This document shows positions 27,323-61,418 of a stretch of 64,000 bases of DNA, one piece after another. Below the pieces are notes generated by a model. That model saw only the letters and a program-made list of their open reading frames with translations. It was not told where the DNA came from and made no database searches. The stretch's first letter is position 1, and each line of letters starts with the position of its first letter. Origin of the DNA: a virus. The position numbers and the translations under genes were made by a program. The stretch lies in IMG/VR virus record IMGVR_UViG_3300013099_000017, positions 32,001 to 96,000 of that record. One strand, given 5' to 3'.

Positions 27323-27402
27323 ACGCTTGTAGCTCAGTCCGGAATTAGAGCAGGGTGCTTCTAACGCCCGTGTCGAGGGTTCAAATCCCCCCTAGCGTAC
27401 CA
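27323..27402 (+). tRNA. tRNA-Arg(TCT)
   Basis: Cloverleaf: ACGCTTG/CTAGCGT acceptor, GCTC/GAGC D stem, loop CT-TCT-AA, TTCAAAT T loop, encoded CCA. Confidence 0.9.
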
Positions 27403-31504: not shown

Positions 31505-31579
31505 GGGTCTGTAGTTCAACTGGTCAAACGTGCCACTCATAATGGCTTATTTCAGGTTCGAGTCCTGACAGACCTACCA
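31505..31579 (+). tRNA. tRNA with CAT anticodon (elongator Met or Ile2)
   Basis: GGGTCTG/CAGACCT acceptor, loop CT-CAT-AA, TTCGAGT T loop, CCA; lacks initiator G-C triplet. Confidence 0.88.
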
Positions 31580-53258: not shown

Positions 53259-54395
53259 ATGAGACAATTTCCAACTTTATATAAATTTGATACAAAAGGA
53301 AAAGTTCGCAGATGGGATATTTATTCTGATGAAAATATTTTTGTAGTTGAACATGGTTTAGATGGAGGTAAAATTCAATCAAAACCAACAAAATGTAAAC
53401 CCAAAAATATTGGTAAAACAAACGAAACTACACCCGAAGAACAGGCTGAAAAAGAAGCTGTTGCAAGATGGGAAAAACAAATTCGTATAGAAGATTATGC
53501 CGAAAATATTAATGAAGCTGGGTTACAAAATAGACCAATGTTGGCACATGATTATCGAAAAGTACCACATCGAGTTAATTGGAATTATACTACATGTCAA
53601 TTTAAATTAGATGGTCTGCGTTTACTTGGTGGTTATCGTTGGGATGATTCAGCACTTGTTGAATTAATGAGCAGAAAGGGTGAGGTTTATCCTATACCAC
53701 ATTTTCAGCGTCCAGTAGAAGAATTACTTGAAATCATTATTGATGAAATTGGATATGATTGTCATGCTATTGATGGTGAAGCATATATTCATGGTATGAA
53801 ATTACAACATATTACAAGTTTAGCAAGAAAAAATAAACCAGAATCATTTGATTTAAAATATTACTTATTTGATTTGGTTATGTATCATACTGAATTTGGT
53901 GAACGTTTTGGTATTTTAGAAAAAGCATTAAAAATTTATTCAAACCGCAATAATGGTAGTGATCATCCATTTGTATTAGTTGAAGTAACATCATGTGAAA
54001 ATGAAGATCAAATGAAAACTTTTCATGGTCAGGCAATTGAAAAGGGATATGAGGGTGCTATGATCCGTCATATAAACGGCAAATATAAAAAGGGACGTTC
54101 TGCCGATTTATTCAAGTATAAAGAATTTTTTGATGTTGAATGTAAAATCATTGGAATGAAATCAGATAATAATGATAATGCCATGTTTGTTGTCATTGCT
54201 CCCAATGGTGTGGAACTTGATGTAACACCAAAACGTACACACAAAGAACGTAAAGAAATGTTAAAACATCCTGATGATTATATCGGAAAATGGCTTACTG
54301 TTAAATATCAGGCATTAACTGAATCCGGTAATTTACAATTTCCAATTGGTTTAGATTTACGTGAATGTGGTGATGATGGTAAACCAATTATATGA
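53259..54395 (+). CDS. 30: ATP-dependent DNA ligase
   Basis: QFKLDGLR, IDGEAY, LFDL, EGAMIR, KYK, TVKYQ..T..G.LQFP. Confidence 0.93.
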   Translation: MRQFPTLYKFDTKGKVRRWDIYSDENIFVVEHGLDGGKIQSKPTKCKPKNIGKTNETTPEEQAEKEAVARWEKQIRIEDYAENINEAGLQNRPMLAHDYRKVPHRVNWNYTTCQFKLDGLRLLGGYRWDDSALVELMSRKGEVYPIPHFQRPVEELLEIIIDEIGYDCHAIDGEAYIHGMKLQHITSLARKNKPESFDLKYYLFDLVMYHTEFGERFGILEKALKIYSNRNNGSDHPFVLVEVTSCENEDQMKTFHGQAIEKGYEGAMIRHINGKYKKGRSADLFKYKEFFDVECKIIGMKSDNNDNAMFVVIAPNGVELDVTPKRTHKERKEMLKHPDDYIGKWLTVKYQALTESGNLQFPIGLDLRECGDDGKPII

Positions 54396-55585: not shown

Positions 55586-56208
55586 ATGAATTTAAAGTTT
55601 GATAAAGAACATTGGTTAAAAGATAAAGAGTATTTTAACAAAAATGATGGTGTTGATCTTGATGTTGAATTAATGGATAAGTATAAATATTATTTTTTTG
55701 GTTTTATAGATTCTCCTGTTGATATATATGAGAATGTTGTTATTGAAGCCAAATCAAATAATTTTCATAATGAAGATAAATTAAGATTATATCTTGATTC
55801 ATATCGTGGTACTTGTAAAAAATTGATATTGTATTGTATTTTACGAAATAATAATGATATGTTAAGATTAAGATATGTAATAATTCCGGAGGATGTTGAA
55901 TAATGCAATTAATATTTGATAAAGAACATTGGTTAAGGGATAAAGAAGAATTCCAAAATGATCTTGATGAACTTGATGTTGAATTGATGGATAAGTATAA
56001 AGACTATTTTTTTGGTTTTATGGAATGTCCGGTTGATTCATATTATGACAATCAGTTGATTATTGCTAAAATTACTGATTTATATGATGAAGATGAATTG
56101 AGATTATATCTTGACTCACATCGTGGAACTGGGACAAAATTGGTATTATATCAGATTTTACGCAATGAAAATGGTATGATACGATTAAGATCGGCAATGA
56201 TTTCATAA
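55586..56208 (+). CDS. Tandem paralogous pair (55586-55903, 55903-56208)
   Basis: FDKEHWL.DKE.F..LDVELMDKYK.YFFGF..LRLYLDS.RGT..KL.LY.ILRN. Confidence 0.85.
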
Positions 56209-56500: not shown

Positions 56501-56902
56501 ATGTTATCAATAGTTGATATTAAAGCAGGAAAAGCCATTTTTACCGTATCTAATGATAAGGGTGATCATTACACATATAAAGTGAGTAAAGCGGATAATG
56601 GTTCTGTTTGGTTTGTTTCAACATTGGTTGGAAGTGATAACGAGAATTCTTATTCTTATCTTGGTATAATTACTACTGCAAATATTTTCAGATTGACCAA
56701 AGGTTCAAAATTTGGTGAAGATTCAAAATCATATAAAATTTTTAAATGGGTATTTGATATTATCAAAGGTGTCAAATCATTACCAATTGGATATGATGTT
56801 AAACATGCAGGATGTTGTTTGAAATGTGGTAGAACTTTGACAACACCCGAAAGTATTGATAGTGGTTATGGTCCGGTTTGTCTTAAAAAGGTATATGGTT
56901 AA
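56501..56902 (+). CDS. DUF6011 zinc-finger protein
   Basis: CLKCGRTLTTPESIDSGYGPVC. Confidence 0.8.
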   Translation: MLSIVDIKAGKAIFTVSNDKGDHYTYKVSKADNGSVWFVSTLVGSDNENSYSYLGIITTANIFRLTKGSKFGEDSKSYKIFKWVFDIIKGVKSLPIGYDVKHAGCCLKCGRTLTTPESIDSGYGPVCLKKVYG

Positions 56903-57421
56903 TTATGAAACAACTTGAATTTAAACCATATTTTGATGGTGGATTAAATTTAGTTGGTGATTATACCGTTGTTTGGTGTGGACGTTCAATTGTTCTTTTG
57001 GGTACATATGATGGTATTGAAAATATTGATACTAGAGAATATATTATTAACATTAATGATTTGACTTTATAGGTGAAAAATGTTTAAAATTGAAGTACAC
57101 ACCGTTGATGGAGAAACAACTTATACAGCGATAGCAATTGAAGAAGTTTATAATATTTATTATATTGATGGAACTTGGACTGCTATTGACAAAGATAATA
57201 AAATTGTTGATAAAGACAGGTATCGTTATGATTTATTTGATAGGTTGGAAATGTTATATGAAAAATAAAGAACCATGTATTGATTGTCCGGATAAAGAAG
57301 AAATTCTTAAATTATTAAATTCGGTTCATGATAAGGGTGTACCAAATTGGTCAACATCTGATCTTCAATTGGTTCGTGAAAATTTGAAGTTATTAACTTA
57401 TCTTTGGTTCAGGGTCGAATT

Positions 57422-58354
57422 ATGAATGTATTGGGATTGTTTTCTGGTATTGGTGGATTTGAATATGGATTACAAAATGTTGGATATAATATTAAGGCAT
57501 TATGTGAGATTGAACCATATCCAGTTTCAGTATTAAAGAAAAACTTTCCAACTATACCTATAATTAATGACGTTAGGGATATTGTTCATAATTCATTTAA
57601 AGATATTGATGTTATTGCTGGTGGATTTCCATGTACAGATATATCCAGAGCAGGAAAAATGAATGGTGGTATACGTGGTGAAAAATCTGGATTATGGTTT
57701 GAATTTAGGAGAATAATAAATGACATTAAACCAAAATATGCTATTATTGAAAACGTCAATTCAATACTTGGAAACGGAATTGAAACAGTCTTATCCAACC
57801 TTGCCGAAATCGGGTATGATGCGACTTGGACATCGTATGACACAAAATACTTTGGATTACCACAACGTAGAAGTAGAGTGTATATTATTGCCGTTCGTGA
57901 CGGAATCAAAGACGGAACCGAAATCTTCCAGTTTAAAGAACGTAGTACAGAACAACACAGATACAAAGTTCAATCTATCAAAAAGAGCTTTGAATGGGAT
58001 TATACGCAGGATGGAAGAATCGAAAATCCCTTTGCCTTTTTTACTAGACAAAGAAGTGATGAATTTGCTTGTACAGGATTAAGTTCTACTTTAATGAAGC
58101 GAGATTATAAAGATTTTACCGATATAATAGCCCAAAATGGACAATTAAGACGGGTTACACCAACTGAGCGTATGTTGTTGCAGGGGTTTCCAAAAGATTG
58201 GCTTATAAAGTCAACTAACACCAATATGTATTCATGCAATGGAATGAGTGTACCAGTTATTGAAGAAATTGGAAAACAATTATTTCAATATGATAAAAAA
58301 TATGGTATGATGTCATATGTTAAAGATATTAAACTACAAAGGAAATTGTTTTGA
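57422..58354 (+). CDS. C5-cytosine DNA methyltransferase family protein
   Basis: LFSGIGG, GGFPC, IENV, PQRRSRVYI, terminal RRVTPTER..LQGFP. Confidence 0.92.
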   Translation: MNVLGLFSGIGGFEYGLQNVGYNIKALCEIEPYPVSVLKKNFPTIPIINDVRDIVHNSFKDIDVIAGGFPCTDISRAGKMNGGIRGEKSGLWFEFRRIINDIKPKYAIIENVNSILGNGIETVLSNLAEIGYDATWTSYDTKYFGLPQRRSRVYIIAVRDGIKDGTEIFQFKERSTEQHRYKVQSIKKSFEWDYTQDGRIENPFAFFTRQRSDEFACTGLSSTLMKRDYKDFTDIIAQNGQLRRVTPTERMLLQGFPKDWLIKSTNTNMYSCNGMSVPVIEEIGKQLFQYDKKYGMMSYVKDIKLQRKLF

Positions 58355-59010
58355 AAAAAGATACTTTTAAGTTTGAAGATATTGATAATTTTAATCGACA
58401 TATTGAATTGTCTATCCCAAATTACAAAGGATTAGTTGATATATTCACATCATTTGCTTATGAATTCACTACACATGATGGGGTATTAATTGATTTGGGG
58501 TGTAGTACAGGATCATTCTTGGAACAATTGCCAAAAATAAAAAGTGCTCAATATATTGGTGTTGATGAAGTTGAATTTGTAGATCAAATTAATGTTAATA
58601 ATGAATTTGATTATACTTTTATTAAAGGTGATATCTTGGATTGTTTAACTGAATATAATAATGATGATATTGATGTTATTGTATTAATGTTTACATTACA
58701 GTTTTTGGGTAATAAAAAACGTAAAAAAGTTGTTCAAGAATTAAAGAAATTTGTTGAACGTGGTACAACTGTATTAATATCGGAAAAAGTTTATTTAAAT
58801 GATAGTAAAGTTAATTCTATTTTACAAAGAAACCATAGAGCAATGAAGCGTCATAATTTTACTGATACTGAAATAGTAAATAAAGAATATCAATTGGCTG
58901 GCTCAATGTTTAATAAATCATATACTGACATTATAGAAGAATTGAATTTTATTGGAAATGTCAACCAAGTTTGGCAAAGTTATAATTTTATGGGATGGGT
59001 GATAAAATGA
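58351..59010 (+). CDS. CmoA-like SAM-dependent enzyme
   Basis: FNRHIELSIPNY, DLGCSTG, GDI, VLMFTLQFL, ISEK, WQSYNF align with E. coli CmoA. Confidence 0.85.
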   Translation: MKKDTFKFEDIDNFNRHIELSIPNYKGLVDIFTSFAYEFTTHDGVLIDLGCSTGSFLEQLPKIKSAQYIGVDEVEFVDQINVNNEFDYTFIKGDILDCLTEYNNDDIDVIVLMFTLQFLGNKKRKKVVQELKKFVERGTTVLISEKVYLNDSKVNSILQRNHRAMKRHNFTDTEIVNKEYQLAGSMFNKSYTDIIEELNFIGNVNQVWQSYNFMGWVIK

Positions 59011-59485
59011 TTGAATTAGATGAACCAAAATATAAACAAGCAATAAAAATGTTATATGATAATGGTATTATGTGTGAAGCTGTACGTGATGAAGAAAATG
59101 ATATAAAATTGGCAGTTGAAGGAGAATTTAATTTTTTTGATTATTATCCTTCAACAGGTAGATGGGTGCAACGATTGAGTCATGAATATTTGAGTACAGC
59201 CAGAGAAGGATTTAGTTTACTAAAATTAATTAATTATATAAAGGATCAATAATGCACGATAAAACACAAAGAGCTATGGATGCTTTGGAAATTAATCAGA
59301 TTGGGTTTGAAGTAAAAAATAATGGTATCCAGTTAATTGTAGAGGGGAATGATGGATTTATTGATTTTTACCCTACTACAGGAAATTGGAAATGTCGAAT
59401 TAATGATTCTGAAACTTATGATTCAGGAACCGGATTTAGTTTGAGAAATTTAATTGATCATATTTTGGGGGATCATCGTGGGTGA
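58995..59485 (+). CDS. Tandem paralogous pair (58995-59252, 59252-59485)
   Basis: VEG..FFDYYPSTGRW / VEG..FIDFYPTTGNW; G.FSL..LI. Confidence 0.7.
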
Positions 59486-59724: not shown

Positions 59725-59964
59725 ATGGCTAGAAAAGGTAAAAAACGTAGTATTGCAGTATTTGGTTGTACTCTTGATGATGGTTCATAATTGAATCACA
59801 CAGATTCTGAATTTGTTTCTGTTATTGTAAATCCTGATAAAACTGTAAGTGTAACTGATATTAACAACAATAGTACAATATTATTAGATATTAATGGTGA
59901 TCCGGTTAAATCCGAGAACAAATTAATTAACGATAATATTTTGCCATTTCTTTCAATTCTATAA
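59725..59964 (+). pseudogene. ORF with in-frame TAA at codon 22
   Basis: GGAGG RBS; MARKGKKRSIAVFGCTLDDGS*LNHTDSEFVSV... open to 59964. Confidence 0.5.
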
Positions 59965-60238
59965 TAGAAAGATTATTTTTGGCACGATTGGCTTTAACTG
60001 ATAAAACTTGAATATTGTCTGGTTCATAACCAAGATCACTATCAATTCTATCTATTGAAGGTGAAAATTCATTATAACCCCTTGCATTATAATCAATAAT
60101 ATGGTTTAATAGTGGACACGTTAAAGGTAATGATAAATCATATAAATCGGTTAATGTGAGTGTAAATTTAATATTTCTTTTTTTAGCAGATGCTTTCAAA
60201 TGAGATAATAATTTTTTGTAGTTTAGTGTATGTATCAT
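59927..60238 (-). CDS. HNH-like endonuclease
   Basis: CPLL..SIDRIDSDLGYEPDNIQVLSVKANRAK; start ATG 60238 with TATAAATA at 60250-57 on minus strand. Confidence 0.75.
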   Translation of the reverse strand: MIHTLNYKKLLSHLKASAKKRNIKFTLTLTDLYDLSLPLTCPLLNHIIDYNARGYNEFSPSIDRIDSDLGYEPDNIQVLSVKANRAKNNLSIIELKEMAKYYR

Positions 60239-60444
60239 AATATTGTAATTATTTATAAGGTGAAATAAAATGAACGATTGTTTTAGATGTAAGCGGAAAC
60301 ACACAACATATTGTAATAGTTGTCGTAAAAATCCAAAATTGAAAGATAATTTCATTGAAAGTGATGAATATCATATTAATAAGTGGAGTTTGGAAGGAAA
60401 AGGTGCTAAGGTAATTGATGTCACTTATATGTAATTATTATTTT

Positions 60445-60479: not shown

Positions 60480-61418
60480 ATGTTAAAATTCAAAAACTAT
60501 CTTGTTGAACAGGATTTATTAAATGAGAAACTATTATTAATTAATAGTGGTAAAAAATATGGACAGGTAGTTTTTCTTGCTGGTGGTGCTGGTTCTGGAA
60601 AGGGGTTTGCTGGAAATAATTTTATGAATATTCAGGATTTTAAAGTTCGGGATGTTGATGAAATGAAAAAAGCATATCTTACACTTAATAAATTGAGACA
60701 CAAATATCCTGAATTAGATGGACTTGATTTAAAAAAACCAGAAGATGTTTTTAAAATGCATGGTTTTATTAAGAAAAAAGGTACAGTTAAATCTACATTA
60801 GATAATATGCTTTCTGTTATTGTAAATCCAAACATTTTACCAAATATCGTATTTGATGTTACATTACAGTATGTTTCTAAAATTGATGATACCGTTCCAT
60901 TATTAATCAAAGCTGGATATAAACCCGAAAATATTCATATTATATGGGTGTTGACTGATTATGAAATTGCATTTAAAGCAAATTTGGAAAGGGATCGTAT
61001 TGTTCCTTATGGTAAAGATGGTACACCAAATATTATATTAGATACTCATGTTGGTGCAAGTAAAACAATGTGGAATATTGTTGGTAAAAATAATATTCCA
61101 AAATCAATTAATGGCGGTATTTATGTTATACTGAATAATCGTGATCAAACTATTGTATTTAAAGAAGGTGATAAAAAAGATTTCAGAACAGCAAAAGATG
61201 ATAAAGATGCACCAGCAAAAATAACAACAAGCCCTAGAAAATATGTTAGTAAAAGTAGTGAGAATTACAAAAAGAAAACTATCGTTGTTAAAGATTTCAC
61301 ATATTTAACATATAAAGAACCTGGGAAGGCTCCCAAAAAAGATAAAGAAATTTATAAACAGTTATTTGGATGGGTTAAAGCTAATATTCCAAAATCAGCA
61401 TTAAAATTCATTAATTGA
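60480..61418 (+). CDS. Zeta-toxin/AAA_33-like P-loop protein with capsid-targeting-like N-terminus
   Basis: MLKFKNYLVE..LNE; VVFLAGGAGSGKG; IVFDVT; A..AN..RDRIVP. Confidence 0.65.
   Translation: MLKFKNYLVEQDLLNEKLLLINSGKKYGQVVFLAGGAGSGKGFAGNNFMNIQDFKVRDVDEMKKAYLTLNKLRHKYPELDGLDLKKPEDVFKMHGFIKKKGTVKSTLDNMLSVIVNPNILPNIVFDVTLQYVSKIDDTVPLLIKAGYKPENIHIIWVLTDYEIAFKANLERDRIVPYGKDGTPNIILDTHVGASKTMWNIVGKNNIPKSINGGIYVILNNRDQTIVFKEGDKKDFRTAKDDKDAPAKITTSPRKYVSKSSENYKKKTIVVKDFTYLTYKEPGKAPKKDKEIYKQLFGWVKANIPKSALKFIN

Follow-up and report, generated by a model that had tools for sequence, protein, structure and literature searches.

The Locus and Its Gene Pair

The stretch of viral DNA analysed here (the window) is 64 kb long and corresponds to bases 32001-96000 of a 144,243-bp IMG/VR viral contig. 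The window is AT-rich (28-29% GC) and nearly all of its genes are found on the + strand. The stretch is present only in sediment and marine metagenome contigs of 2017-2018 from public runs, among which no RNA datasets carrying it are listed. It encodes a C5-cytosine DNA methyltransferase homologue (MTase) directly followed by a phage-type homologue of CmoA (Table 1). The two reading frames have the tetranucleotide TTGA (58351-58354) in common, which contains both the TTG start of the CmoA gene and the TGA stop of the MTase gene, and reading of the sequence thereby bore out the 4-nt overlap claimed in a preliminary description of this DNA. A Shine-Dalgarno core (AGGA) precedes the TTG start by 7 nt. 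An overlap of the same style is found in two relatives (L048 and L051). Both genes show dN/dS values of 0.19-0.28 against relatives at 65-83% identity, indicating purifying selection. Since the pair is conserved under purifying selection and recurs in many diverged lineages, it is not a chance juxtaposition. Promoter-like sites were not enriched relative to shuffles (35 vs. 29.8). In one close relative, about 320 nt separate the MTase and CmoA genes without overlap (L049:1417-1733), and this spacer contains a strong promoter-like TTGACA-17-TATAAT cassette.

Table 1. Coordinates of the gene pair and its diagnostic residues (window numbering).
Feature	Position	Strand	Evidence or remark
C5-cytosine DNA transferase, 310 aa, ATG 57422 to TGA 58354	57422..58354	+	PF00145, phrog_116, AlphaFold, relatives 75-83% identical
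Transferase motifs: I FSGIGGF, IV GGFPCTDIS, VI ENV, VIII QRRSR, X CNGMSVPV	57422..58354	+	
Catalytic Cys71 codon, motif IV GFPC (CmoX: SPPC)	57632..57634	+	Alignments
Motif X, residues 270-279 YSCNGMSVPV; where CmoX has Arg350	58229..58258	+	Alignments
Asn273 codon, within motif X	58238-58240	+	
Translational coupling junction	58340..58354	+	AGGA 58340-58343, TTG start 58351, MTase TGA 58352-58354
Phage-type CmoA homologue, 219 aa, TTG 58351 to TGA 59010	58351..59010	+	TIGR00740, phrog_4752, PDB matches, AlphaFold
Met113 codon, E. coli CmoA Asn132 position	58687..58689	+	Alignments; SpCmoA: Leu
Glu179 codon, E. coli CmoA Arg199 position	58885..58887	+	Alignments; SpCmoA: Glu

A coupled pair of this kind has a published precedent in Synechococcus phage S-B43, and the statement in the preliminary description that the CmoX of this phage writes 5-carboxymethylcytosine proved correct. 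In S-B43, SpCmoA makes carboxy-SAM (Cx-SAM) with a kcat of 2.33 per s compared with 0.23 for the E. coli enzyme, SpCmoX writes 5-carboxymethylcytosine, and SpCmoY then ligates glycine onto the base (PMC12783734). The window pair resembles the S-B43 CmoA-CmoX(-CmoY) system (CmoX structure 8YF3) in that a phage CmoA, hydrophobic at position 132 and acidic at position 199 (E. coli numbering), lies beside a C5-cytosine transferase which keeps the catalytic Cys, ENV, and QxRxR. Unlike in S-B43, the gene order is MTase then CmoA, and no CmoY is encoded in the contig.

The CmoA Homologue

The best NCBIfam family for the CmoA-like ORF is TIGR00740 (CmoA), with a score of 63.7 bits against a curated cut-off of 193.3. 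The validated SpCmoA also scores below this value (115.6 bits) and all other phage homologues scored 38-76 bits; the failure of SpCmoA makes the cut-off unfit for phage CmoA. The ORF matched phrog_4752 with 127 bits, and its sequence matches in the PDB are CmoA/YecO only. Its AlphaFold model (pLDDT 91.7) is predicted to have the CmoA fold, which consists of a class I MTase core with N-terminal helices and a C-terminal helical lid, and CmoA/YecO entries supply its six top-ranking PDB chains (4iwn, 1im8, 4gek; TM 0.75-0.80, rmsd 2.9-3.5 Å). For comparison, the S-B43 locus, Moraxella phage Mcat8, and E. coli cmoA were retrieved. In an alignment of 38 sequences, about 30 positions conserved in the CmoA family are present in the window protein, including Y39, D62/G64/S66/G68, D89, GDI, FTLQF, R143, SEK, KR185-186, EI194-195, and K198.

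The preliminary description had pointed out that two active-site residues of E. coli CmoA are replaced, N132 by Met (VLMFTLQFL) and R199 by Glu (NKEY vs. QKRS), and took this as a sign that a different SAM derivative may be made. HMMER and MAFFT alignments agree on both replacements, which are Met113 and Glu179 in the window protein. E. coli CmoA holds on to its product tightly, and Arg199 is the only residue there that touches the carboxylate of the product (PMC4482062); the window protein thus has Glu179 in place of the residue that contacts the Cx-SAM carboxylate. The interpretation as a different derivative did not hold, as SpCmoA itself has Leu and Glu at these positions, and all 37 phage homologues in the 38-sequence alignment are hydrophobic at 132 and carry Asp or Glu at 199. 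These homologues include ones found beside transferases that carry an arginine in motif X (Arg-type) and beside CmoY ligases. Because the validated SpCmoA also has Glu, Arg199 does not define the phage branch of CmoA. The window CmoA is moreover 41-49% identical to CmoAs adjoining Arg-type transferases and SpCmoY-like ligases. With Met and Glu being normal in phage CmoA, this half of the pair is therefore best described as an ordinary phage Cx-SAM synthase; from its sequence and model it looks functional, and it would be expected to produce Cx-SAM. In the faster phage CmoAs, product inhibition may be relieved by the absence of Arg199.

Nothing in the analysis pointed to a novel SAM derivative. 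An alternative in which the enzyme makes another SAM derivative, or feeds Cx-SAM to host CmoB for the cmo5U modification of tRNA with no link to DNA, would draw on the Met and Glu residues and on the NCBIfam score below cut-off, but SpCmoA likewise departs from E. coli CmoA at both positions and scores below the cut-off, and in its fold and conserved residues the window protein is a CmoA. The E. coli CmoA/CmoB tRNA cmo5U pathway (4GEK; PMC4482062) has in common with the window protein the CmoA fold and SAM motifs (TM 0.79, 25% identity). It differs in the Glu at the Arg199 position, in that the phage has no CmoB, and in that the partner is a DNA enzyme. No CmoB family match was found in the contig. 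Over the full length of the contig, ARAGORN detected no tRNA genes other than tRNA-Arg(tct) and tRNA-Met(cat) (window positions 27323-27402 and 31505-31579), neither of which belongs to the cmo5U set. The alternative would also leave the close coupling with a DNA enzyme unexplained, and it is regarded as very improbable. A tblastn match of E. coli CmoB to ORF 60480-61418 (38 residues, E 0.001) is weak and was judged spurious; this ORF codes for a P-loop protein whose similarity to Zeta toxin is weak.

The Transferase

The upstream gene product matches PF00145 with 197.8 bits (E 4e-58; cut-off 22), TIGR00675 with 183 bits, and phrog_116 with 240 bits. Together with motifs I, IV (PC), VI (ENV), VIII (QxRxR), and X, this places it in the C5-MTase superfamily. 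The best PDB match of its AlphaFold model (pLDDT 82.5) is M.HhaI with a TM of 0.70, while SpCmoX (8yf3) gave 0.61. Yang et al. (Nat Commun 2025; PMC12783734) defined CmoX enzymes by an SPPC motif and by Arg350, a residue which binds the carboxymethyl group and takes the place of Asn304 in M.HhaI. Natural SpCmoX is strictly specific for Cx-SAM, and its R350N variant is inactive (PMC12783734). Genomic association with a phage CmoA is found in the window as well, by way of the gene overlap. The sequence reads GGFPCT rather than SPPC and CNGMSVPV in motif X, is about 26% identical to SpCmoX, and is without the insert of about 19 residues after motif IV; where SpCmoX has Arg350, it has Asn or no equivalent. 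By its motifs, the window MTase is not a CmoX.

Residues 269-284 of the window MTase, which comprise motif X, read MYSCNGMSVPVIEEIG, and the motif X sequence which sets the enzyme apart from CmoX is YSCNGMSVPVIEEIG. Compared with canonical enzymes, motif X is short by 2 residues, which makes the residue equivalence of Asn273 ambiguous. Alignments with E. coli Dcm and DNMT2, as well as anchoring on the final helix of the AlphaFold model (277-294), place Asn273 on the canonical Asn. HMMER against HhaI and hhalign against Arg-type families shift it by one or two residues. Asn273 is therefore a probable structural equivalent of M.HhaI N304 and SpCmoX R350. The earlier claim that motif X keeps this Asn stands insofar as Asn273 is there and motif X contains no cationic residue; the correspondence to HhaI N304 is only probable.

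Among 120 members of the family to which the enzyme belongs (referred to here as NGM), Asn is found at position 273 in 109 (91%) and Lys or Arg in none, nor do these occur beside it. G274 is present in 117 of the 120 and M275 in all, and F69 and C71 are likewise invariant. No substitute cationic residue was found among the family-invariant positions outside the canonical motifs. The conserved Arg and Lys residues of the family sit in a strongly conserved variable region (FTRQRSDEF...KRDYK) which is modelled at low confidence. The enzyme is similar to M.HhaI and other canonical C5-MTases in its top structural match, in all catalytic motifs, in Phe-Pro-Cys, and probably in the motif X Asn. It differs from them in the shortened motif X, in the invariant Gly-Met after the Asn, in the conserved variable region, and in belonging to a family that was seen in phages only and is linked to CmoA. 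The database cluster representative of the window MTase (P0106) has RRSIVY in place of the RRSRVY of the window, so that the second motif VIII Arg is missing; either an inactive variant or an error in sequencing could account for this.

Distribution and Linkage to CmoA

A search of viral contigs with the window CmoA as query gave 43 loci. In most of them CmoA lies downstream of an Arg-type C5-MTase (GGTPCATFS, GR(A/S/G)MSINV) without SPPC, and five of these loci also encode an SpCmoY homologue at about 50% identity. Marine Arg-type cassettes (L006-L046, L084-L099) are similar to the window in their CmoA (41-49% identity), the MTase-then-CmoA order, the gene overlap, and the motif X tail xMS(I/V)xV. 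Their transferases differ in carrying Arg, in their length of 355-554 aa, and in being only about 25-30% identical to that of the window. The marine Arg-type transferases read GR(A/S/G)MSINV and have GTPC for SPPC, so the published SPPC and R350 filter would miss them, and some adjoin SpCmoY-like ligases. Many CmoY-CmoX-CmoA loci (L134, L137, L141, L143-L144, L146-L148, L150, L154-L159, and L161-L163) were found to contain tandem CmoX pairs, both SPPC/GRM and 47-77% identical to SpCmoX, which presumably differ in DNA specificity.

The close relatives of the window pair keep an Asn-type MTase upstream, with 75-83% identity for the MTase and 65-73% for CmoA. Wider members of the NGM family are 45-61% identical, have about 295-310 residues, and share (F/Y)xCNGM(S/T)VPV. 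A CmoA-like ORF is directly adjacent in about 12 distinct NGM lineages, which is every one examined outside a single CmoA-less clade. CmoA is located upstream of the transferase in some lineages and downstream in others, and the identity of the linked CmoAs to the window CmoA falls as low as 19-25%. One carrier of the NGM-CmoA pair is a 347-kb jumbo phage. In the CmoA tree, the partner type switches between Arg-type and Asn-type at least 3-4 times, and each of the two phage CmoA subfamilies has partners of either type. For example, the CmoA of Mcat8, whose partner is an SPPC/Arg CmoX, groups with CmoAs of Asn-type partners.

A scan of 185,579 prokaryote species genomes did not bring up the NGM family in its top 80 matches, which covered the catalytic half only or were about 30% identical. 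From this, NGM is not an ordinary restriction-modification methylase family; judged by the sequences found, it is apparently confined to phage and metagenome sequences and distinct from CmoX. Among 50,697 records of cultured phages, the family is found in four, all of them Vibrionaceae phages without CmoA; Vibrio phages S4-7, 1.052.A, and 1.233.A are among its carriers. Members without CmoA all fall into a single nested clade, which has a C-terminal extension and is made up of the cultured Vibrionaceae phages (three types) and a metagenomic contig (L053). The genes cmoA-cmoB are native to gamma-proteobacteria (PMC4482062), and in E. coli the CmoA of the host is enough to supply a phage transferase (PMC12783734). 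A literature search found no published description of the NGM family. In Vibrio phage S4-7, a hypothetical gene for a 208-aa protein overlaps the start of the Asn-type MTase gene (L081:2628-3254), in the position occupied elsewhere by CmoA; the protein has no NCBIfam match, CmoA included. In two other loci a second C5-MTase follows the Asn-type cassette (L052:5504-6520 and L060:4890-5933), with KQYERCSGIP in motif X, which is neither GN nor GR.

Carboxymethylation or Methylation

The favoured reading is that the NGM transferase is an Arg-less carboxymethyltransferase that would write 5-carboxymethylcytosine with CmoA-made Cx-SAM, a proposal which is given an even chance on the basis of sequences and predicted models. 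In the proposed mechanism, the window CmoA would convert host SAM and prephenate to Cx-SAM, and the coupled transferase would use the Cys-addition mechanism of C5-MTases to attach the carboxymethyl group at position C5 of cytosines in replicated phage DNA. The resulting 5-carboxymethylcytosine would shield phage DNA from host nucleases. The NGM transferase would have to recognize the Cx-SAM carboxylate without a motif X arginine.

The family's near-obligate linkage to CmoA speaks for Cx-SAM as the cofactor, and the canonical pocket speaks for SAM. Also counted for Cx-SAM are the functional look of the CmoA half, the absence of the family from the top prokaryote matches, and the contig's content, in which no other Cx-SAM consumer (CmoB, a second C5-MTase, or a cmo5U tRNA) was found. 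The exchange of partner types in the CmoA tree, with both subfamilies serving both kinds of transferase, is consistent with Cx-SAM use, as is the fact that the cultured members of the CmoA-less clade infect hosts which make Cx-SAM themselves. Experiments show moreover that an Asn-type enzyme can bind this cofactor. Wild-type M.MedI, which has Asn, shows a KM of 8 µM for Cx-SAM with weak carboxymethyl transfer, its kcat being 0.0003 per min compared with 0.685 for N377K (PMC12015181). Counted against Cx-SAM are the SAM-canonical pocket (GFPC(Q/T), ENV, QRRxR, and Asn in the great majority of members) and a predicted fold nearer to M.HhaI than to SpCmoX. The incompleteness of the contig (79% complete by CheckV) was also set on this side.

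The published experiments weigh in the same direction. A cationic residue was required for efficient use of Cx-SAM in all of them (PMC12783734, PMC12015181, PMC13288465), and removal of Arg350 left SpCmoX dead. The engineered variants M.MpeI N374K, M.MedI N377K, and M.CviPI Y205K/R are built on a C5-MTase scaffold and altered at the same pocket position (PMC12015181, PMC13288465). They use Cx-SAM by means of a cationic residue; the window enzyme keeps a wild-type-like Asn. Wild-type M.CviPI does not use Cx-SAM (PMC13288465).

Downstream ligases were also considered. In 80 loci collected with a CmoY profile, every transferase with readable motifs was Arg-type and none best matched the Asn family; conversely, no CmoY was found in about 27 Asn-type loci. 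Both observations were counted against Cx-SAM. The search for an amide-ligase partner that the preliminary description had called for came up empty, with no SpCmoY match by tblastn and no Asn_synthase, ATP-grasp_4, or AMP-binding family match in the 144-kb, 79% complete contig. Without such a ligase, the modification would stop at 5-carboxymethylcytosine. The contig also has no match to the dCMP hydroxymethylase/thymidylate synthase family.

Several of these observations would fit a transferase that is an ordinary SAM-dependent 5mC methylase and a CmoA with another role, such as draining or remodelling the host SAM pool against SAM-dependent defences. A draining role of phage CmoA was floated in the discussion of PMC12783734. 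This explanation agrees with the canonical pocket residues including the Asn, the HhaI-like fold, the published dependence on a cationic residue, the lack of CmoY ligases beside NGM transferases, and the occurrence of the family without phage CmoA in Vibrio phages. However, it leaves unexplained why CmoA is almost always adjacent, in either order and with two CmoA subfamilies, to a transferase family that is not seen in the best bacterial matches. Moreover, a SAM-draining CmoA coupled to a SAM-dependent MTase would be self-defeating. Plain methylation is viewed as rather unlikely, though it is the main competitor.

A further explanation is that the transferase takes both SAM and Cx-SAM, and that phage CmoA shifts their ratio to give mixed 5mC and 5-carboxymethylcytosine. 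The low KM of wild-type M.MedI for Cx-SAM combined with slow transfer would be in keeping with this, and N-to-K variants of such enzymes retain methyl transfer (PMC12015181, PMC13288465). SAM is about 400-fold above Cx-SAM in uninfected E. coli (PMC13288465), and SpCmoA is ten times faster than the E. coli enzyme (PMC12783734). The strict specificity of natural SpCmoX for Cx-SAM speaks against dual use, which is considered improbable.

Natural 5-carboxymethylcytosine was first described in December 2025, and the transferases are currently recognized by one arginine. If carboxymethyl transfer from Cx-SAM is correct for the NGM family, the family would add to CmoX another natural lineage of enzymes that carboxymethylate cytosine in DNA, one that needs no cationic motif X residue, a conclusion for which the balance is likewise even. 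In that case the sequence rule for predicting cofactor choice would be incomplete, as the SPPC and Arg350 signature misses this family, and 5-carboxymethylcytosine would be commoner than in the published census. It would extend to jumbo and other marine phages, and to cultured Vibrio phages with the transferase alone, drawing on host Cx-SAM. A compact enzyme of 310 residues with a different cofactor pocket would also become available for sequencing chemistry. If the NGM family only methylates, phage CmoA would have a second role outside carboxymethylation, which would also be new. The cultured Vibrio phages with an NGM enzyme make the cofactor question directly testable.

Neighbouring Genes

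The small genes flanking the pair were not counted as parts of the module because they are not conserved with it in other lineages. Directly 3′ of the CmoA gene are two tandem small paralogues (58995-59252 and 59252-59485) of 85 and 77 aa which are 38% identical; they have no Pfam match, and the module is found elsewhere without them. An ORF at 57138-57425 was rejected as spurious, since it is the ORF overlapping it (57080-57268) that has a homologue in L049. A second tandem paralogue pair of 105 and 101 aa lies further upstream (55586-55903 and 55903-56208), with alike N-termini (..FDKEHWL.DKE.F) and alike C-terminal halves. Other neighbours encode an ATP-dependent DNA ligase (53259-54395; PF01068 and OB domain) and a DUF6011 protein (56501-56902). 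A lone minus-strand ORF at 59927-60355 has no Pfam match and appears HNH-like by eye.
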